This document shows positions 10,513 through 34,889 of a DNA stretch of 57,276 nucleotides, piece by piece (within the stretch, counting starts at the first letter, position 1; each line of letters begins with the position of its first letter). Source of the stretch: a virus (taxonomy: Duplodnaviria; Caudoviricetes); the IMG/VR virus record IMGVR_UViG_3300025890_000031, positions 1-57,276 of that record; one strand, written 5' to 3'. The notes under the pieces were generated by a model. The model did not search any database and was not told where the DNA came from. It worked only from the letters and a program-made list of their open reading frames with translations. The translations under genes and the position numbers were made by a program.

Positions 10513-10754
10513 CATTTTTTGTCTGTAGTTTTCTCCCAAATTTCTTATTGTATTGTGTACAGCCAAGATTTTTACAATATCTATAGCCTTTGATATTTTT
10601 ATATTTTCTATTGCAATTTTTGCAATTTTCTATTTTTTTCATGCTCTCTATTCATCGACTTCTAAAAATTTTCTCTATGTAAAAAATCACCGACCCACAG
10701 ATTTGTGGAAAAATCGTAATTTTTGGTGGGGTGGGGTGAAATATTTAAAATTGT

Positions 10755-10787
10755 AGTACTCCTCTCCTTATTGCAAAGGGTTGCAAA
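10755..10787 (+). repeat. Boundary element copy 1: AGTACTC-N5-CTTATTGC-N6-TTGCAAA
   Basis: Same blocks and spacing as 18082-18114. Confidence 0.65.
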
Positions 10788-11087
10788 TGGGTTTTAACTA
10801 TCGTGTATGAATGTACGCTCTCTCTATCAATCTCTAAGCTCCAGCGACCAATGTCCATTAAACTTTAAGCTCTCATTACCAGACTTAGCAAGTGATAACT
10901 CGTGATGTAGGTAGGCTTTTGTGCTCTTATTTGAGTTATACGCTACCTGCAAGGGTGGGGGTTGTTGAATTGAGAACATTGGATTAGGTTTTTCTGTCTG
11001 GTTAAATATTAAATCTTTTAGCTCTACATTTTCTCCTGCTATTAGTCCCAGAGTGAATGCTGTCTGTATATTCATAATGCTCTCATT

Positions 11088-11525
11088 CTAGTCTTTAACT
11101 ATTTCTCCATCAATTTCATCTCGTATAGCTGATAAGTACTCATCTTTAGTCCCATCAACAATCATAACACCCTGCGTTATTGTTTGATTAATTTCACTCT
11201 TACGAGGGCTATCTAGTCCATACATTTTGCTTATTCTATCCATAATGCTCAACGCTCTATCAATAGCACCAAGCTCCCCCTGTTGCACTCTCTCCCAAAG
11301 GATAAGTAACATCTGGTTAAGTCGTTCATATTCAACTGTACGGAGTTCATCTGTTGGCTCGGCTATGATTGATTTCATACTACGTTGTATAGACTTATAT
11401 GCTCCAGAACTATCGGCATACCCTAACTGCTTTGCTATGACCTCATAACTCGCACCTGCTTTCCTAAGCTCTAATGCCTGTCTATCTTTCTCCCTGACCT
11501 CAATGGATTTATTATTTACTTTCAT
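11088..11525 (-). CDS. terS: Terminase small subunit (HTH)
   Basis: ALELRKAGASYEVIAKQLGY HTH followed by helical region ending RISKMYGLD, an actinophage TerS-like pattern. Confidence 0.7.
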   Translation of the reverse strand: MKVNNKSIEVREKDRQALELRKAGASYEVIAKQLGYADSSGAYKSIQRSMKSIIAEPTDELRTVEYERLNQMLLILWERVQQGELGAIDRALSIMDRISKMYGLDSPRKSEINQTITQGVMIVDGTKDEYLSAIRDEIDGEIVKD

Positions 11526-11552
11526 GTACTCACTTTACCATACCCAAAAACT

Positions 11553-11679
11553 TAACTGTATGCAACGCCAAACCCAAGCTATCTTGATTATCCCATAGAG
11601 AGCCTTATTTATTGACTTGTTCGCCAATACTTAGGTAGCCTTTTTTGAGTACTTCATTGTTTGCCCCTGCATACAGTTA
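11553..11679 (-). ncRNA. Candidate structured RNA in the terS leader
   Basis: Perfect 12-bp closing stem TAACTGTATGCA/TGCATACAGTTA with nested G-U-containing helices. Confidence 0.5.
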
Positions 11680-12340
11680 CTAAAAGTACTCGCTACTAAC
11701 CTTATAAATACTACCTCTTTCCTATGAGTGCTTTATTTGACTTCTCTCCGTGCTACTTTATGCTTTGACTTCTAAAATAACTTATAAATGAGTGCTAAGT
11801 CCATACTAATGTTCTGGATAACATCAACCCAATTTTTTTGATTTTTTTTCTTTTTTGTGGGGATTTCTGTAAACTTTTCCCCTCATGTTTTAAATGCACT
11901 CAAATATGTGGCTATCGGCATGGATTGGTATTCTGTATTACCCCTGTGACTTAAAACATATCTTATGAGCTCTTTTTGATTTATTTGCATACTTCGACTT
12001 TTTTCAATTCCCTACTATTTTTTATTTATTTTTGAAAAACTCTTGTTGGTCGTATAAGCTGAAAAGAGTGCACCTAACCCCAAATACTGTCAGCTATAGC
12101 TTGTGAAATAAATCACAAAGATATAGTCTAAGCTACGTACTCATAGGTTTTTTGCTCAAAAATGGCTTATTTCTCCATGAATAATATACATGAAAAATGT
12201 ATAATTATACATGATTTAGGGAGTACATAGGTCTATAAGCCTATGAAATAAGGCTTAAAATAGCCCTTATTTTATGGGGTTTTATGGACGAGTACTAAAA
12301 AAAAACTTTTAAAATAGGCTACCTAAAACAATTACCTACA

Positions 12341-12346
12341 TATAAT
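12341..12346 (+). promoter_or_regulatory. Candidate -10 box (TATAAT) of the early operon; a second TATAAT at 12200-12205
   Basis: Perfect -10 hexamers in an AT-rich gap upstream of the plus-strand operon; -35 not clear. Confidence 0.4.
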
Positions 12347-12375
12347 TGTATTAGATATCTATATATCTAAATTCT

Positions 12376-12862
12376 CTTGGATTATGAGGACAATAGGTGG
12401 TAATTAGTCTACAGTCGCTGTCGGAGGACGGAATGGAACTGACTTTTAGCCTAAGTGAAAAATCTCCCAAGAGGACACACAGAGCTTGTGTATTCAAGCT
12501 GACTAGAGGTCAAACGCCTTCTCTTGCGACCTTACTGTCAGATGAGTACATAAGTTATGCCTTCGGTCAAGAGGGCTTAGTCTGTTGTGTTGGTGGTTGA
12601 TTTTATCACAACCATACGACTTGCAGAGTACATCTCAGCATAGCGTGTTGCACCAAGCCTGTTGGAGGGCGATACTTCAGTTCAAGAAGTAAAAACTACC
12701 AAGCTAGGTAGAGGACTAATGCTATATGTGTTAGAAATTGTCTGTGCGTTGGCGTGTAAGGAGGTCTTATTGCAAGTAATCTCCTGTGTAGCCAAATAGT
12801 TTGTGCAAGAGTACCATAATCATATAGAAGTTGTCTTTTCTTAATAACCAAGTTGCTACTTA
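12376..12862 (+). ncRNA. Candidate large (~480 nt) multi-stem non-coding RNA
   Basis: About 45% GC versus about 32% for the genome, no convincing ORF, closing stem 12376-12394/12830-12852 and at least 7 internal hairpins with G-U pairs. Confidence 0.65.
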
Positions 12863-12930
12863 ATAGAGTACGCCTAGTGGATATTCATACGTTACATTTC
12901 GTAGTGTACTCCAGAGAGTGAGAATACATT

Positions 12931-13221
12931 ATGAATAGATTAACAAATATAGAAATGCAGGAAATAGTTGAACAGTATGGTGAGGTCACATTCACTAGAA
13001 AACAACTAAAAGTAATTCGTGCATTATTAAACGCTACAACCAAAAAATTAGTTAACGAGTACGACAACAAGAATAGTAAATCTTTTCAAGTTGCTCTAAG
13101 CTCTTTATCTAAATTTAACTTTGATTTTGCTGACTACTGTCAAGAGGTCAATGACAACTTCAAAAGAGAAGTTTGGTTTGATGCTAACAACCTAACACGC
13201 AACGCTAGGCGTATATGGTAA
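12931..13221 (+). CDS. Hypothetical early protein
   Basis: 96-aa ORF with a purine-rich leader. Confidence 0.7.
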   Translation: MNRLTNIEMQEIVEQYGEVTFTRKQLKVIRALLNATTKKLVNEYDNKNSKSFQVALSSLSKFNFDFADYCQEVNDNFKREVWFDANNLTRNARRIW

Positions 13222-13376
13222 GAGTACTTAAATCAAAGTATTGGTGGTATTATGGCTTATTGTTTACAAAAATAAACAATATTCATTGTAGAGTACACTA
13301 CAAGACATGGCTCAAAATGTATGACTTTTATTCTTATAAAATTGAAAAAGGACTATCTATGTGGGAGGACTGCTAA
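13215..13376 (+). CDS. Small hypothetical protein (53 aa, aromatic-rich)
   Basis: Manual translation MVRVLKSKYWWYYG...MWEDC; overlaps both neighbours. Confidence 0.5.
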   Translation: MVRVLKSKYWWYYGLLFTKINNIHCRVHYKTWLKMYDFYSYKIEKGLSMWEDC

Positions 13377-13528
13377 TGATGGTTGACACTAGAATAAAAT
13401 GTCTATGTGGAGAACACATGGCTAAAATAAGCGTAATGGCTAACGTAAAAAGTACAACATTAGTACAATTTTTATGTTTCCATTGTGGTGCGAGTACAAT
13501 CGCCAAAGAACAAAGTAAAAGAATATAG
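13376..13528 (+). CDS. Small zinc-ribbon protein (50 aa)
   Basis: Manual translation shows CLCG...CFHCG; GGAGG RBS; TAATG coupling. Confidence 0.65.
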   Translation: MMVDTRIKCLCGEHMAKISVMANVKSTTLVQFLCFHCGASTIAKEQSKRI

Positions 13529-13620
13529 GAATATATTGGAGTACACTACGAAGTGTATAGTATGAAATATAAATTCAGTTATCTACGATAGGTCTGTGTC
13601 CTCGGAAAAGGAATAATAAA

Positions 13621-14514
13621 ATGAGTAAGAACACTCTAGCAGAGAACATCTCTGCATTAATACCTAACAAATCGCTTGAAAATTATGTCAAGAGAATTGT
13701 TGACGGAGGTCAAAACGACCTAGAACTACTAGATTACGCACACAAAAGCAGACACAATGTCCTCATTTCTGGGGATACAGGTGTTGGAAAAACTCATTGT
13801 GTTTCGGCACATGCAGAGAACATTCAATTACCCTTTGTATCTATTGCTTGTAATGGTGCGACTAACCCAGACCAAATGTTCGGTATGTTTATGCCGAGTA
13901 CAGAGGGAAAAGGTTTTGAATGGACAGATGGTGTCGTGACCTCATTGGTTAGACATGGTGGCGTTCTTTTGCTTGATGAAGTGAACTTTATGAAAGCAGA
14001 TATTGCCGCTGCCCTCCACCCATTACTAGATAGTCGTAGAACACTAACCTTAGTTGAAAATGGGGGAGAGGTCATCAAAGCTCATAAGGATTTTCAAGTT
14101 GTTGCTTGTATAAATCCTAACTATGAGGGCACAAGACCATTAAACGAAGCCTTTAAAAATCGTTTTGCCTTACAGGTAGAATTTGATTATGAAGGTAACT
14201 CAGAGGACATTTTGATTGATGGTAGACCAAGTTTACTTGAATTAGCCGATAGGTTAAGAGAAAGTAGAGAAAATGGAACTATCACAACACCTGTGAGTAC
14301 AAACGCTTTAATGGAATTTTGTGAGTTTGTTGAGGACTTGGGAATAGAGTTTGCTATAAGCAACTTTGTTAACAGATTTGAAATAGATGAACGAAGTGCA
14401 ATCAAAGAGTACTTTGATGTATTAATTCCTCAAATAGCAAGTGAATTTGGAACTGATGTTCCTGAACTCTTTGTTGTTGAACAACCAGATGAGGAAACTG
14501 ATACAGATGAATAG
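13621..14514 (+). CDS. MoxR-family AAA+ ATPase (CbbQ/NorQ/CobS-like)
   Basis: Walker A GDTGVGKT, Walker B LLLDEVN, NPNYEG, and AFKNRF Arg finger. Confidence 0.92.
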   Translation: MSKNTLAENISALIPNKSLENYVKRIVDGGQNDLELLDYAHKSRHNVLISGDTGVGKTHCVSAHAENIQLPFVSIACNGATNPDQMFGMFMPSTEGKGFEWTDGVVTSLVRHGGVLLLDEVNFMKADIAAALHPLLDSRRTLTLVENGGEVIKAHKDFQVVACINPNYEGTRPLNEAFKNRFALQVEFDYEGNSEDILIDGRPSLLELADRLRESRENGTITTPVSTNALMEFCEFVEDLGIEFAISNFVNRFEIDERSAIKEYFDVLIPQIASEFGTDVPELFVVEQPDEETDTDE

Positions 14515-16483
14515 TCATGGCGAGGACAATCTAAGTTTAGATGAAGTCCAAAAAATTCTCAATATGCACGAGGACAACGAAGATAGAGTTTTCGGAGATA
14601 TTGAAATGCAAGAACGACATGAGGACGTACAACGAGAAAGCAGTCGTATGAAAGCGATTGGTAATGCCTTTGCGAGTACATTTACTAAAGTAAATCGTAT
14701 TCTATCAGGTCAAAACGAAATCAATGTACTTATGACAGAGGACAATGCAGGTGTTGACGCACCTGCTTGGACTGATGGAGAACACGTTTATTTGAATAAG
14801 GCTTATGTGAATAAATCTTTTTCTAGTATTTTTAATAATGCTAAAATTGATTTTTCACAAATAGCTGAGGTCAAAGGCTTGAACTACCATGAGTTAGCTC
14901 ATATATTCTATACCCCACGAATGAGTGATAAAATCACTAAGCTCGTGAGGGCAAAAGCCGATTTAGATAATGATTGGTGGTATGCGTACAATGTACTAGA
15001 GGATATGAGGGCAGAAAGCTCTATCATTCATGTTTATTCTAAAATGATTGACTATTTCACTTATACAGTTATTAAGTACATATTGAATAATGAGGACAAC
15101 GAAAATGACACTTCGTATTTTCTTTTAAGTGGTAGATTTTTTCTACCTATTGAAATGAGAAATATGATGAGGTCATTATTCGCTCAAAAATATGGTACTA
15201 AATTCACTAAGAATATGGATAGCATTGTTAAGAAATATGTGGCTGAGGTCACATATACTTCTGCAAGGTATCAAGAGGGCTATGATTTGATTGAACGATT
15301 TGTGCTTGAAGTAATCAAGCCAATGAGGGCAAAAAGTGGTCAAGCCTTACCTAAGTGTATCGGTGGTAGTAGCCACCAACAACACCACCATGCAGGAGCT
15401 AAACGAGGAGGACATTGGAATAGCCGAAATGAAATGGGCAATATGTGGAAAGGAAAAACACAAGTTGCAGACCAAAAAGAGGTCAAACCATTCATTGAGG
15501 AACTAATTGATGAAGTTGAGAGTTTAGAAAAACAGGCAGGAAAACTTGGTGCTAAAGCAAGTAAGGGGAGTACTGATAATTTAAGTGCTAGTGAAGTTAA
15601 TGTTGAATTAGAAAAAATCTTAGAGATTGTGGAAAAGAGTCCACAATTTAAGAGTGATGTTAAAATTACTCAAAAAGATATTAGTCATAAAATAGAAACA
15701 GCTATAGAGGACAGTTATATTAAAGGTCTTGAAGTAGCTCCTAGTTTATTGACACCTAGTCAGAGTACATTAGCTACAAAAATACGTTTAAGGCGTTATT
15801 TTAGACAATTAAGAATGGACTTAGAGCAGGATTGGTTGACAGAAAAGAGGTCAGGCAAGGTTGATTTAAGTCGTTTTATGTCTACAGAACATTTAGGAAA
15901 AACCGACATTTTTAAACGTTGGAAACCTAATGACGAGGACGTAGCTAGTGCTGAATGTGTAATTCTTGTTGATATGTCTGGTAGTATGTCAGGCGTTATG
16001 GACTCTGTTAGTCAAATAGCTTGGCTATTAAAGAGTGAGTTAGACAATATAAATGTGAGGACTTCAGTTCTTGGATTTGCTAATAATTGTTATAAACTAT
16101 ATACACCAAACCAAAAAGCCGACAGAGGTCAATACTCTGCTTGGGCTAGTGGTGGGGGTACACAACCAATTTACACATTAAAACAAGCTAATAAAATATT
16201 GACTAAAACCGATAGAAAAAATAAGGTAGTTATTGCCCTCACTGATGGTGCATGGACTAACCATGATGATGAAATCGAGGAGGTCAAGAACTTGACTAAA
16301 AATTGTGATAGCTCAAACTTGCTATTCTTTGGCTCTTTTTACTCTTTTGAGGACAGAGGCAAAGATGAGAAAGTGAGTTTTTCACATTTTGATAATCTTA
16401 TTAAAATTAATAAGATTGAGGACACAGTAAAAGTAGCTAAACAATTAGTTGCCGATATTGTAAATAAAGTAATAAACCAATAA
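14507..16483 (+). CDS. Metallopeptidase-like plus vWA domain protein (CobT-like MoxR partner)
   Basis: HELAH...NVLEDMR zincin motif; MIDAS DMSGSM...T...LTDG; ATG at 14507 preferred over the track start at 14441. Confidence 0.88.
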   Translation: MNSHGEDNLSLDEVQKILNMHEDNEDRVFGDIEMQERHEDVQRESSRMKAIGNAFASTFTKVNRILSGQNEINVLMTEDNAGVDAPAWTDGEHVYLNKAYVNKSFSSIFNNAKIDFSQIAEVKGLNYHELAHIFYTPRMSDKITKLVRAKADLDNDWWYAYNVLEDMRAESSIIHVYSKMIDYFTYTVIKYILNNEDNENDTSYFLLSGRFFLPIEMRNMMRSLFAQKYGTKFTKNMDSIVKKYVAEVTYTSARYQEGYDLIERFVLEVIKPMRAKSGQALPKCIGGSSHQQHHHAGAKRGGHWNSRNEMGNMWKGKTQVADQKEVKPFIEELIDEVESLEKQAGKLGAKASKGSTDNLSASEVNVELEKILEIVEKSPQFKSDVKITQKDISHKIETAIEDSYIKGLEVAPSLLTPSQSTLATKIRLRRYFRQLRMDLEQDWLTEKRSGKVDLSRFMSTEHLGKTDIFKRWKPNDEDVASAECVILVDMSGSMSGVMDSVSQIAWLLKSELDNINVRTSVLGFANNCYKLYTPNQKADRGQYSAWASGGGTQPIYTLKQANKILTKTDRKNKVVIALTDGAWTNHDDEIEEVKNLTKNCDSSNLLFFGSFYSFEDRGKDEKVSFSHFDNLIKINKIEDTVKVAKQLVADIVNKVINQ

Positions 16484-16556
16484 CACATTAGAGGGCATTA
16501 GACCTATCGTAGATAACTGAATATCTTAACTACTCTTTATAGAAATGGAGGACTGC

Positions 16557-16721
16557 ATGAATTTGCAACCTATGTTTTTCAAAGATTGCCCTAACTGTAA
16601 CATGAGTACAGTATGGACAGCTTTGGAACAAGTTAATGAACTCGAACAACGTGTAGAATGTGATGAATGTCAAACGACAGAAATCATGCCTAGAGTTGCA
16701 GAGGACTTAGTCAATGGTTGA
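16557..16721 (+). CDS. Small zinc-ribbon protein (54 aa)
   Basis: Manual translation shows CPNC...CDEC; GGAGG RBS. Confidence 0.7.
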   Translation: MNLQPMFFKDCPNCNMSTVWTALEQVNELEQRVECDECQTTEIMPRVAEDLVNG

Positions 16722-17100
16722 TGATATTAAAAACATTTTAATTTCACTTAACCAAATAAGATTAAGTCGTATGAGTTTAGATGACCAAGAGAGTACTTTA
16801 AAACAACGATTACTAGATTATTTTAAATCTAGTGATATGGCTAAATTCAATGTATCACATGAGGGCAAGAATATACGTGCTACCCAAGTGAACAATGATA
16901 GAGTTATTATTGATGAGTTAGGACTTATAGAGAACATATCTCCAGAACAATATGATAAAATCATAAAAAAATCTGTTGATAGAAAACTCTTAGAAATAGC
17001 CATTAGTAATGGGGATATTAGCGAGGACTTAGCTAAACAGTTTATTAAAGTACAAGCAGGAAAAAAATACATTAAACTTAATGTTGAGGAGGACAAGTAA
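16714..17100 (+). CDS. Hypothetical protein
   Basis: 128 aa, GAGG RBS, coupled to neighbours. Confidence 0.7.
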   Translation: MVDDIKNILISLNQIRLSRMSLDDQESTLKQRLLDYFKSSDMAKFNVSHEGKNIRATQVNNDRVIIDELGLIENISPEQYDKIIKKSVDRKLLEIAISNGDISEDLAKQFIKVQAGKKYIKLNVEEDK

Positions 17101-17399
17101 TGGTACAACCACCAAATACTAGCCCCTCAGCATTGAGGACTTATGTTAATAGTAAGACAAGAAATAAAATGTATTTACCAAGTGACCTAGCGAGGTCATT
17201 AGGTGTGTCTGTTAAAACAGTACGCAGGTGGATTAAGGAGAGCAAAATATTACCTAGTGTTCATTTAGAACAAGGAAAAAACCTTATACCCCTATGGACT
17301 GCCGAGGACATAATCTATGTACAGAATTGGTATCTAAAGAAAAGTAAAGGAAAACAACCCAAATATAGAGAGGAGGTCAGTACTGATGATAACATTTAG
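17100..17399 (+). CDS. MerR/excisionase-like HTH DNA-binding protein
   Basis: SDLARSLGVSVKTVRRW HTH. Confidence 0.8.
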   Translation: MVQPPNTSPSALRTYVNSKTRNKMYLPSDLARSLGVSVKTVRRWIKESKILPSVHLEQGKNLIPLWTAEDIIYVQNWYLKKSKGKQPKYREEVSTDDNI

Positions 17400-17589
17400 T
17401 AGTGGCTTACATTTCGGCATTATTGTAACTATGATTTCTGTAGTTATGTTTTTAGCATACGAGGTCTTTAATGTACTTCGTTTGTCTTATGCCGAATATA
17501 AATATAATAAAGAAAAACCTATTGAAGTAGACTTCTCCACGAGGTCTGGTAGAGAAAAGTTTTTCAATGAAACTTACAAAAAATGGTAA
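17386..17589 (+). CDS. Small membrane protein
   Basis: N-terminal TM helix; GGAGG RBS. Confidence 0.65.
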   Translation: MITFSSGLHFGIIVTMISVVMFLAYEVFNVLRLSYAEYKYNKEKPIEVDFSTRSGREKFFNETYKKW

Positions 17590-17798
17590 AAACATCTAGC
17601 TTAGACGAGGGCGATACTGTTGAACATTCGCTTACAGTTGAAACGAATGTTTTAGGCAATAAGATATGGCTTAAAACAGGAGCAACAACTAAGGTGAGGA
17701 CAGGGGAAACCCCAAGTGGTGCTAGTAAAAGATTAGCCAACTTTGTGAGTAGGAGAACATCTCAGCAATTACAAGAGTTGAGAAAAACAAGCGAGTAG
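17583..17798 (+). CDS. Hypothetical protein
   Basis: 71 aa, last gene before the terminator. Confidence 0.6.
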   Translation: MVKTSSLDEGDTVEHSLTVETNVLGNKIWLKTGATTKVRTGETPSGASKRLANFVSRRTSQQLQELRKTSE

Positions 17799-17820
17799 TT
17801 GAGTACGTATTTCATACAAT

Positions 17821-17869
17821 GGGATAGCAATTTTATTAATTTAAAATTTGCTATCCCCACTTTTTTTTT
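17821..17869 (+). terminator. Intrinsic terminator of the early operon
   Basis: GGGATAGCAA/TTGCTATCCC stem followed by T9. Confidence 0.8.
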
Positions 17870-18081
17870 GCTCTCTTTTTCACTTTCTTCTATCGCTGCT
17901 ATTTTTTATTATTGCTTTTTTTTTGCTCTCTTTTAGAAGCAAAATGGCTGGGGGTTCAGGTAAAAAAAAAGTACTCGTCACCATCATGGGCATCTGGATT
18001 GTTATAAAATGCACTCATATTTTTGGTGATTTCGTCAGGAGCATCTGCACTCTTTTAAATATTCTTCTTCCTTCGCTGCAC

Positions 18082-18114
18082 AGTACTCTAAAACTTATTG
18101 CGAACCCTTGCAAA
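18082..18114 (+). repeat. Boundary element copy 2: AGTACTC-N5-CTTATTGC-N6-TTGCAAA
   Basis: Matches 10755-10787, 7327 bp away. Confidence 0.65.
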
Positions 18115-18271
18115 AATAATTTGTACTCAAAAATGAGAAAAAAAAAGTTTTGTCCTCTTTTTCTACGGATATGTCTTCTAGGGACTTTTCAAAATGCACT
18201 CGGAAATTCAAAAACTTTACAATTCAGGTTGAAGGTGATTTATGTTTTACGAAAGTAGAGTGCTAAATTTA

Positions 18272-20537: not shown

Positions 20538-21968
20538 TTAGCCTTCTATATGCTTTGGAGTTGAACCTGGTTTAAGTGGGTCATACATATCTCCACCTTT
20601 ACCTTCTTTTTTATCATACACAACACCTCTTCTTTTCGCAGCAAAGTTGTCTAAGTATGTTACAGGCATATCAGGTTTTACTCTTTCTTTAACTAAATTT
20701 TGACCTGGGTTTCCACCGTATATTAACAAATGCTCTGGTTGTAAAGCATCTAAAGCTATTTTTGTACAATTAGCTAATACTTGTGTTGATTTTTCTCTTG
20801 TATCACGGTTTGGATTACCTTCTTCAGCGTCTATGTTTTGTAAGCAAATAGCTAAGATTGGTGGATTTTTTGGTATTCCTAACATAGCAATATCCATTGA
20901 TTGTTCATCTGCAAATTGAACACGTGGTATTACCTTCATACCAGTTTCTTGAAACATACGACCTAACCATTGTGCGTTATAGACTGCTTGTAAATGAAAA
21001 GCCTTTGGCTCTGTATAATAAAAAGAGAAGTCTGGTACAACTGCTGTTTTAATTCCAGCAGCTAAGACTTTTTGTATCATGTATCCAGTATGTGTTATAA
21101 AATTAAAAAACTTATCATCATAAGTAAAGAAAGACATAATAGCTCTGTCATACGGCATACCTATTGGTCTTGCTAATCCGTAGTTCCATAGCCAATGTGT
21201 TATACCATCATCAGGTGTAGCATCTCTACCTGCCCAAGTATCTAAGGGTTTTGGTAGTTTTTCTAATAACATATCTCTTCTAAGTTCTGGTATATCCCAT
21301 CTGTTATTTGTTGGTAAGAATAACTTTTCTTCGTCAATCATCATTATGTTATTATCTATTTGTTCGTCTAATTCTTCATTATCATCAAACCCATCCAGGT
21401 CATCTTCATTTTCTGTGCTCAAAATATTATCAGTTGGTAATCCGTCACCAATATCTAGTGTGTCTGGTATAGAAATATCTACACCTTGTGGGTTTGATAA
21501 ACCTTCAACATAAGTATCTAATCCTGCGTTCGTGCTTGTTAAACCTTCAAATGTTTGTGAAAGACTTCTGTCAACAGCATCAACTATTAAGCTAACATCT
21601 TGTTCTGTATAGCCAGTACCAATAGGGTTGCTAACATTTTGCAATAAATTAGCTAATTGACTTGTATCATAAGTTGCTAAATCGTTTGTTCTGTTGTCTG
21701 CTAATACTATTTTTGAAGCTGATTCATCATCTACATCAACAAAAGCTACTGATATAGTTTCCCATCCTAAAGATTTAGCCGCTAACCATGTGTGGTTTCC
21801 TGCTAAAATAGAATTATCTTTTTGGTTAACAACAATAGGTTTATACTGTTTATTTTCGTCTAATGATTCAGCTATAGCTTCTATGCTACCTATTCTGGGA
21901 TTTCCCTTGTATGCTTTTAATGTATCTAGCTTTACATCTTTTATTTCTACAACCCTATTGTTTGACAT
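20538..21968 (-). CDS. ParB/Srx N-terminal domain fused to a DUF4417-like domain
   Basis: NPR...PIVV...ILAGNH...LADNR ParB motif; FFTYDDKF, PDFSFY and GMKVIP DUF4417-like motifs; acidic linker. Confidence 0.75.
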   Translation of the reverse strand: MSNNRVVEIKDVKLDTLKAYKGNPRIGSIEAIAESLDENKQYKPIVVNQKDNSILAGNHTWLAAKSLGWETISVAFVDVDDESASKIVLADNRTNDLATYDTSQLANLLQNVSNPIGTGYTEQDVSLIVDAVDRSLSQTFEGLTSTNAGLDTYVEGLSNPQGVDISIPDTLDIGDGLPTDNILSTENEDDLDGFDDNEELDEQIDNNIMMIDEEKLFLPTNNRWDIPELRRDMLLEKLPKPLDTWAGRDATPDDGITHWLWNYGLARPIGMPYDRAIMSFFTYDDKFFNFITHTGYMIQKVLAAGIKTAVVPDFSFYYTEPKAFHLQAVYNAQWLGRMFQETGMKVIPRVQFADEQSMDIAMLGIPKNPPILAICLQNIDAEEGNPNRDTREKSTQVLANCTKIALDALQPEHLLIYGGNPGQNLVKERVKPDMPVTYLDNFAAKRRGVVYDKKEGKGGDMYDPLKPGSTPKHIEG

Positions 21969-22347
21969 TTTTCTCCTTTGCTTGCAATTCTAATACTTTT
22001 TCATAATTATCTTGTAATAATTTTCTTTCTTGTGGTGTGTAACCACCAAATATACCTTCGTCAGACTTTGTTATTACTGCAAAGTCTAAACATTCCCTTT
22101 GAACTTCACATCCTTTACAAATACTTTTAGCTTCATCTTCTGTGTATAAATATTCTCCATTTACTTTAACTGTTGGGAAGAAAATATTACTATCTCTACC
22201 AACGCAGTTACCATAGTTTTTCCAATCTCCTTCAAGTAATATCTGAATATCATCTATTGTTTTCCAGTTACTTGGCTTTTCTCTTATGAAAGAAGGTTGA
22301 AACTTAGGTATGAGCTTGCCATATTTAAGTTGTTCGTCTTCTTCCAT
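21955..22347 (-). CDS. whiB: WhiB-family transcription factor
   Basis: C...FFP...AKSICKGCEVQREC...GIFGGYTPQER. Confidence 0.92.
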   Translation of the reverse strand: MEEDEQLKYGKLIPKFQPSFIREKPSNWKTIDDIQILLEGDWKNYGNCVGRDSNIFFPTVKVNGEYLYTEDEAKSICKGCEVQRECLDFAVITKSDEGIFGGYTPQERKLLQDNYEKVLELQAKEKNVKQ

Positions 22348-31929: not shown

Positions 31930-32682
31930 TTATTTAAACTTATCTGGATATTCTTTGTAATTAATTCGTTCTACTTGTGCTTTGAGTAGTTCTATTCGGT
32001 TATCTTCATATTCTTTTTCAGTACCTTTTCTAACTTCTAAAGTAAGTTTTTCTGTTTCTCTTTTATAAGGTATAACTTGAATTAACGGTGTACCAGCTGG
32101 TAATATAAATTCTTTTTCTTGTATGCTAAACGGAAATGTAATGTAACCCCATTTATCCGCTTCTACTAAACCTTCTAGTAATCTAATCTCTTTTCTAAAA
32201 TGATAGAATGGGTCAACGTACATCAAGTTGTACCCTTCTGGAACTATGAATTTATATGGACTTTCTAATTTTAAAACAGATTTATCTAATCTTCCTAAAT
32301 TAGCTAATCCTACATCCATATCTCCAACTTGTTTATCAAAATGTGAACCAAAAAAATTGTGGTCAAATGCTTTATTAGTTGTCATGCCATAATATGTTTG
32401 TGTTGCGTTTCCTTCATCATCATATTCATGCCCCATATACATTTTTCCCCATAATGGAATAATTACTCCTTCTGTCATTAAATCTTGAATAGCTGGACAT
32501 TTCTTTGCAGTAAACGCATCTTCACTCCAAACATTGTGAAACTCTTCTAAAAATGAAGCCATTTCATTTCCTAAATGTAAATCTTTAAACCATTGCGGTA
32601 TAAATCTATTTGCTGGTTGTGGTGGGTAAGCAGCAACTAAATCTTCAAACTTTTTTGATTTTGGTATAACTTCTATTTTCAT
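31930..32682 (-). CDS. dUTPase-fold-like/DUF6065-like hypothetical protein, paralog 1
   Basis: P.PA...IP.WF, KKCP, PEGY, GTPLIQVIPYKRE. Confidence 0.55.
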   Translation of the reverse strand: MKIEVIPKSKKFEDLVAAYPPQPANRFIPQWFKDLHLGNEMASFLEEFHNVWSEDAFTAKKCPAIQDLMTEGVIIPLWGKMYMGHEYDDEGNATQTYYGMTTNKAFDHNFFGSHFDKQVGDMDVGLANLGRLDKSVLKLESPYKFIVPEGYNLMYVDPFYHFRKEIRLLEGLVEADKWGYITFPFSIQEKEFILPAGTPLIQVIPYKRETEKLTLEVRKGTEKEYEDNRIELLKAQVERINYKEYPDKFK

Positions 32683-33152
32683 TTTCTGTAATCCTCTGGT
32701 ATTTTCATTTCTCCAACAATAGTATTTGTATATAATTGGTCATCTCTTAAACCGTAATAATCTTTACAAAAATAATTATCTTGCAAAAACTTTTGTCCAT
32801 CAATATTCCACAATCCGTTATCTAAAATTAATACGCATTGGCTGTTGCTATGTGTAAATGATAATTTTACAAGTTCATACCTACTTATGCAATCTGGGTC
32901 ATTATCAACAAAAATATAATCTGCTAATTTAATATCTTTTATTATTGGTTTTAAATCTTTATTTAATGTTTTATAAGCTACATTATCATATCTTTTTAAT
33001 TTATCTTGATACTCTTTATTGTTGTCGTATGAAATTACACTACTAAAATTATTTGCAAAAACTTTAGTTGAATATCCAGCACCAAACTCTAACATCAATT
33101 TATTAACTGTATTCCTACTGTTAATGTAATTTTCAAAAGATTTAATCAACAT
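32679..33152 (-). CDS. Class I SAM-dependent methyltransferase-like protein
   Basis: LEFGAGYST motif I; YIFVD; ILDN. Confidence 0.7.
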   Translation of the reverse strand: MLIKSFENYINSRNTVNKLMLEFGAGYSTKVFANNFSSVISYDNNKEYQDKLKRYDNVAYKTLNKDLKPIIKDIKLADYIFVDNDPDCISRYELVKLSFTHSNSQCVLILDNGLWNIDGQKFLQDNYFCKDYYGLRDDQLYTNTIVGEMKIPEDYRK

Positions 33153-33846
33153 TTCTTGAATAACCAGATTTGAATTTATTAACTACTTTGTAGTGTCCTT
33201 TTCGTATCATTTTTCCTAATTTTTCGTTAATAGGTACAAACTGATAATTAAAACTTTCTCTCTTATAGGGAACTATATAGCATAAAGGTGTACCTTGTTT
33301 GATAAGAATTTCATCATCACTAGAAGTATAAAAAATTTGTACTGACAATTCGTGAAGTTTGTCTGTATGTACAACGCCATAGTTAGCTTCCCAATCTTTA
33401 TTAAAAGTGTATATCATAGGTATGTACCTAAGACTGTAACCTTTAGGTGTAATGCAAAACCAGTTAGTATTAATATTTATTGTTGCTCTGACCCCTGCTC
33501 CTTCAGGTATATAATCTAAAAATTGTTTTGGGTCATGTGTTCTTACTATAAACTCGTCATTAGCAGGATTAATATACAATTCTCCATTATGTATTGCTAG
33601 GTGTATATCGCAAGGTGCTACTAAAACGTACCCCTCTCTAAATACTTCTACAAAACTAGGACAATGTCTAGCTCCTTTATAGTTAGGTATAATCTTAGAT
33701 ACAAAACCGTCTTTGTTTGGTATAGGTAAATCCATAGGCATGTTAGTAAACCACTTTGGTATAAAGTTTTTAGCAGGTTGTGGCTTTGTAAATTCTATTT
33801 CATCATAGCCAGTAGTATCTGTAGTAAATTTTATACTTGCCTTCAT
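33142..33846 (-). CDS. dUTPase-fold-like/DUF6065-like hypothetical protein, paralog 2
   Basis: Shares PQPA..FIP.WF, CP, PKGY and GTPL..IVPYKRE with 31930..32682. Confidence 0.55.
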   Translation of the reverse strand: MKASIKFTTDTTGYDEIEFTKPQPAKNFIPKWFTNMPMDLPIPNKDGFVSKIIPNYKGARHCPSFVEVFREGYVLVAPCDIHLAIHNGELYINPANDEFIVRTHDPKQFLDYIPEGAGVRATININTNWFCITPKGYSLRYIPMIYTFNKDWEANYGVVHTDKLHELSVQIFYTSSDDEILIKQGTPLCYIVPYKRESFNYQFVPINEKLGKMIRKGHYKVVNKFKSGYSRNVD

Positions 33847-33878
33847 AATGCTATTCTATCATGCTATTATATCTATTA

Positions 33879-34889
33879 ATGAAAAATTTTCACATAAAAA
33901 TACAAGGAAGTGGACTGCCAGCACACTTAGCATTGCTTAAATACCACAAATACAATAAAATTAATTGGAATTATGCTGATACAGAATTTACCTTACCTAT
34001 GTCATCTACATTGGACTTTATACCTTTTATGCAAGATTCAATAAATTTTAGTTGGTCTGATTTAAAATTGTTTAATGGTAATTTAAAAACTGGTGTAAAT
34101 AAAGTAAACTTTAACAATAAATCATTTGATTCAAACTTTAAACCACCTTTTGTAGCTCTACACTTTGATTCTTTAAGTATGTCTAAATATCTATATAGTA
34201 AATGCAAATATAATTCTACAAAAAAAAGTGATATTTTAATAGATGCAAGTAAGCCAGTTGACATGTCAAATTATCTAACTTTAAATCATGTACCGACTAA
34301 TTGTGCTATTGGATATAAATATAAAGAGGAATATGCTTCAACTAAAACTAAGTTAGAAGCTACTGAACATGGATGGATTCAGACTATACCGACTGCTAAA
34401 TATGTTTATGTTTATTACATTTTTAATAGTGATATTAATAATCCACAAGATATCGCTGATTCCTTGCCACTAAGAAATTATAACTATGAATTAATAAACT
34501 TTTCTAGTTACTATTTGCAAAATCCTTTTTTAGAAAATCATTTAAAATTAGGATTAAATACTTTTTTTATTGAACCTTTTGATGCTACATCTTTAAGTGG
34601 TAATTTAAGACTTTTAGATTTATTTACTGACGTACAAAATAAACACATGAAGCACTCTGATGCTTTATATTATTACTTTGATTATATTAAAGAAGCTATG
34701 GAGGTATTAATGCTACATTACGTATCAGACGTACCTTTTAAATCAGAATTTTGGCGAAATGCTAAAGATAAAGCTGAAGATTATTTAATTAATACTGGTA
34801 TAAAAAAAAGAGATATAAGTAATTTTTATAGCAAAGAAGGTTATAAAAAATTATATAAAAACTTGAACGTTTCTAATTATATTCAATAA
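33879..34889 (+). CDS. Divergent tryptophan-halogenase-like flavoprotein
   Basis: Degenerate GSG FAD motif, HFD, GWIQTIP, FIEPFDATS, LHY...SEFW. Confidence 0.65.
   Translation: MKNFHIKIQGSGLPAHLALLKYHKYNKINWNYADTEFTLPMSSTLDFIPFMQDSINFSWSDLKLFNGNLKTGVNKVNFNNKSFDSNFKPPFVALHFDSLSMSKYLYSKCKYNSTKKSDILIDASKPVDMSNYLTLNHVPTNCAIGYKYKEEYASTKTKLEATEHGWIQTIPTAKYVYVYYIFNSDINNPQDIADSLPLRNYNYELINFSSYYLQNPFLENHLKLGLNTFFIEPFDATSLSGNLRLLDLFTDVQNKHMKHSDALYYYFDYIKEAMEVLMLHYVSDVPFKSEFWRNAKDKAEDYLINTGIKKRDISNFYSKEGYKKLYKNLNVSNYIQ

Follow-up and report, generated by a model that had tools for sequence, protein, structure and literature searches.

Phage-borne RNAs of the ROOL and GOLLD type are several hundred nucleotides (nt) long, fold into several domains, contain no open reading frame (ORF) and are of unknown function, while sponge RNAs such as CsrB and RsmZ are non-coding RNAs that bear many copies of a short motif in their hairpin loops. 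RNase III cuts long duplexes flanking segments of a transcript, as in the 16S/23S rRNA operons and in the early RNA of phage T7. On the DNA level, uptake sequences and Chi sites are over-abundant words with non-random spacing or polarity, and stoperators are sites of about 13 base pairs (bp) that lie between genes at a few dozen per genome. According to the accessible parts of two accounts of Cluster A mycobacteriophages, stoperators are asymmetric sites scattered in large numbers over transcribed DNA, most of them facing the same way with respect to transcription, with lineage-specific variants that form the basis of immunity groups (PMC9283540, PMC6550527), and the accessible part of a third describes HIP1 of cyanobacteria as a short over-abundant word tolerated in genes (PMC5861425). 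Here we compare these systems with a locus of IMG/VR virus record IMGVR_UViG_3300025890_000031, the whole of which (linear, 57,276 bp, completeness estimate 81%) is called the window below. For positions 12376-12862 of the window, a sequence-only reading had proposed a possibly new large structured phage RNA at the head of an operon. With fair confidence, we favour an account in which this segment yields a processed plus-strand leader RNA, the first module of its operon, whose DNA doubles as an array of a regularly spaced hexamer.

Relatives of the phage were found by a protein search with its presumed large terminase (TerL), which returned four IMG/VR contigs, three of them 92% identical in this protein (L002, L003 and L005) and one 88% identical (L004). 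A blastn comparison of 12300-12930 with GenBank phages gave zero matches, and seeking relatives through the AAA protein alone yielded none. The core of the leader (12376-12852) is 86.7-88.2% identical to three distinct relatives, and the broader stretch 12098-12895 is 79-81% identical to L002, L003 and L005, compared with 67-77% for the flanking coding DNA. When the coding DNA of the hexamer zone described below is divided into 200-bp bins, most bins show 62-78% identity to the relatives; those above this range lie at 13400-13600 (81-86%), 14000-14200 (84-85%) and 17200-17400 (80-82%). Exact-pattern scans added two viral contigs and two metagenome records, in which the leader region is identical to that of L002 or L005, and the searched viral and metagenome collections thus hold four distinct leader sequences. 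Two further candidates for leader homologues, L022 and L028, proved to be chance matches, and neither the leader nor a regular hexamer was found in the more distant relatives L017 (41% in the AAA protein), L020 and L021 (54-55% in TerL).

The plus strand of the leader folds at -150.7 kcal/mol compared with -131.3 ± 6.1 kcal/mol for dinucleotide shuffles (z -3.17; none of 100 shuffles folds as well), which is the check that the sequence-only reading had itself suggested, whereas the minus strand folds no better than its shuffles (z -0.78; 21 of 100 as good). Folded singly, L002 (z -2.87) and L003 (z -4.61) likewise surpass all of their 100 shuffles, and their structures of minimum free energy (MFE) recover the best-supported consensus helices, including helices 6-9. 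The RNAalifold consensus of the four sequences comprises 150 pairs at -136.9 kcal/mol on the plus strand and reaches -103.5 kcal/mol on the minus strand. Twelve of the 150 pairs have changed on both sides and yet remain paired, and 98.2% of the cells pair; column shuffles leave 5.1 ± 1.5 double-changed pairs and never reach 12 in 500 attempts, and sliding the partners by 1-3 columns leaves 0-2. Since the consensus had been predicted on the same alignment, the count was repeated on the MFE fold of the window alone, where 13 of 166 pairs are double-changed (shuffles 6.0 ± 1.6, 0 of 500 as many; slid partners 0-3). The gap columns are unpaired in 29 of 32 cases, placing the indels in loops. Among the individual changes, helix 11 shows CG to GC at alignment columns 258:281, UA to GC at 260:278 and GU, GC or UA at 261:277, and within the long-range helix of the 3' domain one pair occurs as CG and UA and another as UA, AU and GC, two pairs of this helix having either three pair types or two double changes. 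The covariance model R1 scored 165-176 bits in the window, L011, L013 and L014 and had no match elsewhere.

Several hairpins that had been read from the letters recur in the relatives. The stems CTGAC/GTCAG and CTACC/GGTAG are kept in all four aligned sequences, ACACA/TGTGT holds in all four with one mismatch in L005, TACTTC/GAAGTA holds in all four with a C-G to G-C swap, and AGGTC/GACCT is helix 8 of the consensus. The stem GTTGTG.TGGTTG/CAACCA.TACGAC persists in its inner part as helix 10, and AGGAGGT/ATCTCCT is kept unevenly, with 7, 4, 6 and 6 of seven pairs across the four sequences. The long-range contacts of that reading did not withstand the comparison. The pair TTGCA/TGCAA retains two of five pairs in L002, and a pseudoknot between 12394-12405 and 12851-12862 forms 12 of 12 pairs in the window and 10 of 12 in each of the three relatives with no compensation, its 5' segment pairing with 12439-12453 in the consensus instead. 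A second pseudoknot, between 12516-12525 and 12569-12576, has its 5' partner in the most variable loop and its 3' partner already engaged in helix 9, an outcome read off the alignment and not counted. We regard it as likely that the conserved RNA structure is real.

The segment does not behave as a gene, in agreement with the earlier statement that it holds no credible ORF. Its sole sizeable frame, 12397-12600, which had been named as the conserved ORF that might overturn the RNA proposal, comprises 67 codons from a GTG start and is open in the window, and this openness is what speaks for a small protein encoded there or in another short frame. The frame is nonetheless broken by stops or a frameshift in all three distinct relatives, contains a 1-nt indel, distributes its variable columns over codon positions 1, 2 and 3 as 16, 8 and 11 with no excess at the third, and matches no PHROG family, which makes a protein product hardly credible. 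The G+C content was put at about 45% and amounts to 42.3% for 12376-12862 against 34.2% for the window; the elevation is genuine, the figure was too high.

With regard to known RNAs, the sequence-only reading had recognised no RNase P, group I/II intron or transfer-messenger RNA (tmRNA) signature, and covariance searches are equally blank. Scanning the whole window with cmscan against Rfam 15 at gathering thresholds gave no match, among others to ROOL, GOLLD, RNase P, introns or riboswitches; a permissive scan of 11900-13400 (E<=10) gave seven rows at chance level (E 1.7-9.5), none of them within 12376-12862, and ARAGORN found no tRNA or tmRNA gene in the window. A diverged member of a described family such as RNase P, tmRNA, an intron or a riboswitch that the models miss, for which nothing beyond size can be adduced, is very improbable in view of these scans. 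As far as four sequences carry, the module thus appears to be a large structured non-coding RNA outside known families, and the core of the initial proposal is upheld by the strand-specific fold, the conservation, the compensatory pairs, the placement of indels in loops and the lack of an Rfam match. Its likening to ROOL and GOLLD is justified for size and for nothing further: the leader RNA matches no Rfam model, has no neighbouring tRNA genes in the window, occurs in one small clade with four distinct sequences, and is the first module of an operon, studded with a DNA hexamer that continues through a whole zone.

This hexamer, GAG[GT][AGT]C, had been overlooked when the hairpins were described. 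The leader carries 11 copies in 487 nt, 27-55 nt apart, and is the densest part of a zone that extends over 7.6 kb (Table 1). The strict forms GAGGAC, GAGGTC, GAGGGC and GAGTAC have 91 copies, all of them between about 10.7 and 18.2 kb; the other ~50 kb contain none on either strand, where Markov models (orders 1-3) would predict 12-29 on the minus and 5-12 on the plus strand. In the looser form GAG..C, 123 of the 148 sites of the window fall into one run, 10642-18257, with a mean gap of 62.4 bp and a coefficient of variation (CV) of 0.32; randomly scattered sites would give a CV near 1. Enrichment inside the zone is about 15-fold, and information resides in 6-7 positions, namely GAG[GT][AGT]C followed by A or T. 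The hexamer lies on the minus strand at 10.65-11.55 kb and 17.87-18.26 kb and on the plus strand at 12.2-17.8 kb, and its strand flips with gene direction in five genomes. Coding copies occupy frames 0, 1 and 2 as 30, 6 and 15 (n=51), and non-coding DNA is more densely occupied, at 27-55 nt in the leader and 29-55 nt in the tail that follows the convergent hairpin of the operon. L002, L003 and L005 possess the same zone with 96-106 copies and none outside, the positions inside homologous genes partly differing; no regular word was detected in the more distant relatives or in the prokaryote-genome loci examined. Simpler origins of the pattern were rejected. Avoidance of a restriction site alone fails on the ~15-fold enrichment and regular spacing in the zone, Chi-like sites fail on the avoidance outside it, a coding artefact is contradicted by copies in all three frames and in non-coding arrays, and an assembly artefact by the same zone in independently assembled contigs.

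The sister phage L004, which recurs as L016 and whose TerL is 88% identical, uses a different word in the equivalent zone (L016:4339-11809). It carries GCG[GT][ATG]C and almost no GAG-type copies, and 125 of its 128 GCG..C sites lie in the zone (mean gap 60.2, CV 0.32). The degenerate positions of both words are the same, so that one letter (A to C) is switched across ~100 sites between sister phages. As a side observation, GCGTTC is frequent in the GCG type (21 copies), while the GAG-type phages make little use of GAGTTC, with 2-5 copies.

Several properties indicate on which molecule the hexamer is read. Outside the zone the strict word is avoided on both strands, which favours a reading on duplex DNA. 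In the plus-strand operon, 78 sense copies are accompanied by six antisense copies, and the latter occupy the largest sense gaps (mean host gap 138 bp against 82.6 ± 12.4 for random placement, P 0.0002). The same holds for L011 (P 0.0003) and L014 (P 0.0005), with P 0.11 in L016, which has one such copy only; both orientations therefore count for spacing. A weak helical-repeat signal is present in the 10-11-bp band (P 0.0105, 0.13, 0.046, 0.010 and 0.0095 in five genomes, four of them related), and the mean gap phase is 5.3-6.2 bp in all five, so that neighbouring hexamers tend to lie on opposite faces of the helix. No selection on RNA accessibility was detectable for 58 coding-region copies (0.380 native, 0.403 with shuffled flanks, P 0.39). 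In both non-coding arrays every copy is oriented with transcription, which counts against a purely orientation-blind reader. On balance, we lean towards the hexamers being read on double-stranded DNA; that their reader silences the module is a less secure step.

These properties also underlie the main rival to our account, according to which the region matters only as DNA, being the densest landing pad for a hexamer factor, and the RNA fold is a by-product. The 11 hexamers in 487 nt and their resemblance to double-strand DNA signals suit this explanation, as does the GCG-type relative, which retains a hexamer-dense leader and not the fold; the tail at 17870-18260 is a dense array too, and its sequence is not conserved (alignment coverage to relatives 0.1-0.4). 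The tail shows at the same time that density alone does not conserve sequence. The hexamers account for 66 of the 487 leader bases and leave 421 others, yet the entire core is 87-88% conserved, and binding sites would predict neither compensatory changes nor strand-specific folding. We therefore judge a DNA-only role unlikely.

As far as the accessible parts of PMC9283540 and PMC6550527 describe them, stoperators are the closest known DNA analogue of the hexamer. Like them, the hexamer is an asymmetric site oriented with transcription and varies between lineages. It differs in specifying 6-7 bases rather than ~13, in its number (~90-120 copies in 7.6 kb) and in its location, 51 copies lying within coding sequence in all frames and not in intergenic sites, regularly spaced, confined to one zone and purged elsewhere. 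With HIP1, uptake sequences and Chi sites it shares the over-abundance of a short word; those words are genome-wide in cells (for HIP1, as stated in the accessible part of PMC5861425), whereas the hexamer fills 13% of a phage genome, is absent elsewhere and changes one letter between sister phages. Compared with the CsrB and RsmZ sponges, the leader does not confine its copies to loops: they are found in stems, junctions and loops with no rule, and the word continues through 7 kb of coding DNA. Within the parts of the literature accessible to us, supplements not included, we found no zone-restricted, regularly spaced and lineage-switching word, which does not prove its absence from print.

Among 12 zone proteins, a small zinc-ribbon-like ORF shows the steepest drop, from 77-79% identity within the GAG type to 34% in the GCG-type relative, followed by orf128 (16714-17100) with 72-73% and 38%, whereas the HTH ORF (17100-17399; 74-76% within, 76% across) and the TerS-like ORF (86-88% and 78%) change little. 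We thus consider the zinc-ribbon ORF a lead for the hexamer reader, a single contrast of this kind proving nothing, and both it and orf128, the most divergent between the motif types, are candidates for a cognate repressor in analogy to stoperators. Searches of Pfam, PHROGs and the Atlas assigned no family to the zinc-ribbon ORF, and the Atlas clusters nearest to orf128 carry DUF7173.

Almost all genes of the window lie on the minus strand; the exception is the plus-strand operon at ~12.2-17.8 kb that begins with the leader. Besides small ORFs, it comprises the genes of an AAA_5 ATPase and of a VWA protein as well as a MerR/HTH_17-like ORF, and these three are the only operon proteins that Pfam and PHROGs named. 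A convergent hairpin (~17820-17857) closes the operon, immediately ahead of the 3' end of a gene that we take, from its sequence, to encode TerL, and for which neither PHROGs nor Pfam returned a name. Upstream of the RNA, the divergent control region contains a palindrome of ~21 bp, CTTGTGAAA..TTTCACAAG, at about 12100-12120, and a conserved palindromic A+T-rich block lies around 12186-12215; the palindromes in 12098-12215 look like operator sites for a dimeric regulator. With respect to the two named neighbours, we note that the VWA protein (14522-16483) carries in its translated N-terminal part a HELAH motif (HExxH-like), and that its gene adjoins that of the AAA_5 ATPase (MoxR/CobS-like), a pair which PHROGs label 'porphyrin biosynthesis'.

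Downstream of the leader, two long-range duplexes, M1 and M2, bracket gene modules of the operon. M1 contains a 30-nt inverted repeat with 90% complementarity (duplex -45.8 kcal/mol, z -10.9) and M2 a 23-nt inverted repeat with 100% complementarity (-51.7 kcal/mol, z -11.5). In L014, L011 and L016 the corresponding places are likewise bracketed, by duplexes of different sequence; hence the feature is conserved and not its letters. In being near-perfect duplexes of 30-40 bp on either side of a functional stretch of a long transcript, and in keeping complementarity where the partner sequences differ between relatives, M1 and M2 resemble the stems processed by RNase III, and both exceed the length of about 20 bp formed from segment flanks that is expected of such stems. 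They differ in that, within a phage mRNA, each surrounds an entire protein-coding module, of 0.6 kb for M1 and 2.9 kb for M2. We infer that RNase III-type cleavage may take place at M1 and M2, a role on the DNA level being possible as well. At the inner ends of the arms of both duplexes, a hexamer is paired with its complement. The first ORF within M1 (12931-13221, 96 aa) shares 47-55% identity with its counterparts in L003 and L002, none being found in L013 or L016, and relatives carry two smaller bracketed modules at the position of M1; bracketed modules seem to be exchanged as units.

The setting in the operon bears on a further explanation, in which a large and abundant RNA resembling ROOL or GOLLD would act in trans as a free-standing unit, having a promoter and a 3' end of its own and a task that has nothing to do with the operon. 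Size and multi-domain fold, the lack of an ORF and the conserved A+T-rich block directly upstream would suit such an RNA. Against it, the leader has the same orientation as the operon, lies 32 nt from the next bracketed module, is followed by no terminator and matches no Rfam model even at E<=10. Contigs from the RNA libraries of two marine metatranscriptomes cover the leader, one of them spanning 12430-12879 with zero differences, and their depth is low and like that of the neighbouring DNA in both libraries, although such depths cannot rank expression. We consider a free-standing RNA distinctly improbable. We rate at just short of an even chance the view that the leader RNA is a processed leader or works in cis, as opposed to being free and active in trans.

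A number of observations weigh against our account of a processed, structured leader. The covariation has a narrow basis of four distinct sequences that are 86-95% alike and show few events, and the consensus was predicted on the very alignment on which it was scored. Helix 1, which closes the module, is AU/GU-rich, has 11 of 12 pairs invariant and is energetically ordinary (-15.9 kcal/mol, z -0.7 against shuffles); as it never varies, covariation neither supports nor contradicts it, and the ends of the module are its least certain part. A sigma-70 consensus scan found nothing directly upstream of the RNA and no promoter was located, nor was a terminator after it. Coverage in the RNA libraries cannot show a transcript, its strand or its ends, because it consists of contigs only and such libraries can hold DNA. 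Approximately 7 of the 11 leader hexamers lie in helices of the consensus fold in mixed contexts, so that the fold does not present them uniformly. The GCG-type leader is non-coding, of similar length and equipped with its own hexamer array, but shows no nhmmer homology to the RNA, no match to model R1 with filters off (best E 1.2) and no folding beyond shuffles (z -0.90); what the two types share is the hexamer array and not the fold.

Table 1. Coordinates of the leader RNA, its structural elements and associated features in the window.
Feature	Position	Strand	Remarks
Structured non-coding RNA core	12376..12852	+	four-sequence RNAalifold consensus, 150 predicted pairs
Closing helix (helix 1), 5' arm	12376..12390	+	predicted to pair with 12838-12852
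Other well-supported hairpins	12418-12431 and 12674-12690	+	consensus, pair counts
Branched long hairpin domain, helices 6-9	12474..12591	+	four hexamers inside, mostly base-paired; among the best-supported elements
Hairpin, helix 11	12616..12646	+	three compensatory pairs in L002; among the best-supported elements
3' domain, helices 14-19	12691..12841	+	consensus fold
Helix of 100-nt range, 3' domain	12722-12733/12817-12827	+	among the best-supported elements
Conserved regulatory DNA upstream of the RNA	12098..12375	.	invariant columns in the alignment of relatives
Zone of regularly spaced GAG[GT][AGT]C	10642..18257	both	sense strand of genes
Duplex M1, 5' arm	12875..12914	+	pairs with 13536-13575, encloses ORFs 12931-13528
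Duplex M1, 3' arm	13536..13575	+	pairs with 12875-12914
Small zinc-ribbon-like ORF	13361..13528	+	steepest cross-type drop among 12 zone proteins
Duplex M2, 5' arm	13572..13604	+	pairs with 16490-16523, encloses AAA_5 ATPase and VWA genes
Duplex M2, 3' arm	16490..16523	+	pairs with 13572-13604
Non-coding tail, convergent hairpin to TerL stop codon	17870..18260	-	nine hexamers, 29-55 nt apart

The source of the window is an uncultured marine siphovirus. Its proteins give PHROG matches typical of tailed phages (portal, major head protein, tape measure, tail fibres, DNA polymerase, primase) and further ones to a DnaB-like helicase, a UvsX-like recombinase and a WhiB-like gene. Near-identical DNA is listed for marine or seawater metagenomes of 13 studies, and two runs listed as 'viral metagenome' share 0.72-0.75 of the sampled words with the window; for the zone, runs containing 35-95% of its words are known. 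Among prokaryote genomes, the TerL relatives do not exceed 51% identity and are spread over several phyla, and a host could not be named from them; the WhiB-like ORF (21955-22344, PHROG E 1e-16 to 4e-17), found in a marine phage of 34% GC, hints at a low-GC marine actinobacterial host. Elsewhere in the window, two paralogous phrog_7084 ORFs of unknown function (31930-32679 and 33142-33843) lie on either side of a region whose opposite strand bears a tryptophan-halogenase-like gene (33861-34886); this part has the lowest GC content of the window (26-30%). In the DNA metagenome run X8, a long contig (7,870 nt, depth 10.5) ends at 11574, the zone is represented by short contigs only at a depth of ~2-5, and the depth rises again past 18.4 kb; this pattern (11505-18126) may reflect strain diversity of the zone, and such depths prove nothing.

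In the account that we favour, the leader module (12376-12852) would be read on the plus strand, co-transcribed with the rightward operon and detached from the polycistronic transcript as a folded RNA of its own, ~0.5 kb long, in the manner presumed for the duplex-enclosed modules downstream. The fold may serve the transcript itself by providing a stable, Rho- and nuclease-resistant untranslated start. The hexamers would be sites for a lineage-specific protein on double-stranded DNA that marks or shuts down the 7.6-kb module, with the leader DNA as the likeliest point of nucleation.

A more far-reaching version, which we hold to be rather unlikely in its entirety, treats the zone as a regional address code, that is, ~100 half-turn-phased sites read by a small phage protein, with the structured leader as RNA partner. 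The sites are never closer than ~27 bp and rarely more than ~100 bp apart, and a protein bound to them could coat, switch off or otherwise mark the module, leaving the word-purged remainder of the genome free. The switch from GAG to GCG would then create incompatibility groups, so that one phage cannot shut down its relative, and the leader RNA might act, for example, as a timer or antagonist freed by cleavage at the long-range duplexes.

Taken by itself, the leader RNA would add a new open-ocean family to the large structured RNAs of phages. Beyond the RNA, this phage places a short word every ~62 bp through the genes and spacers of one module and removes it elsewhere, and its sister phage obeys the same rules with a single letter altered. 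Should a protein read the word, an entire genomic region would be addressed by a compact natural system of 6-7-bp specificity, and this would suggest how related phages turn mutually incompatible. If the word instead marks DNA modification or nicking, it would represent a region-specific form of a process known only genome-wide. In either case, scans for region-restricted words can reveal regulatory layers that are invisible to gene annotation.

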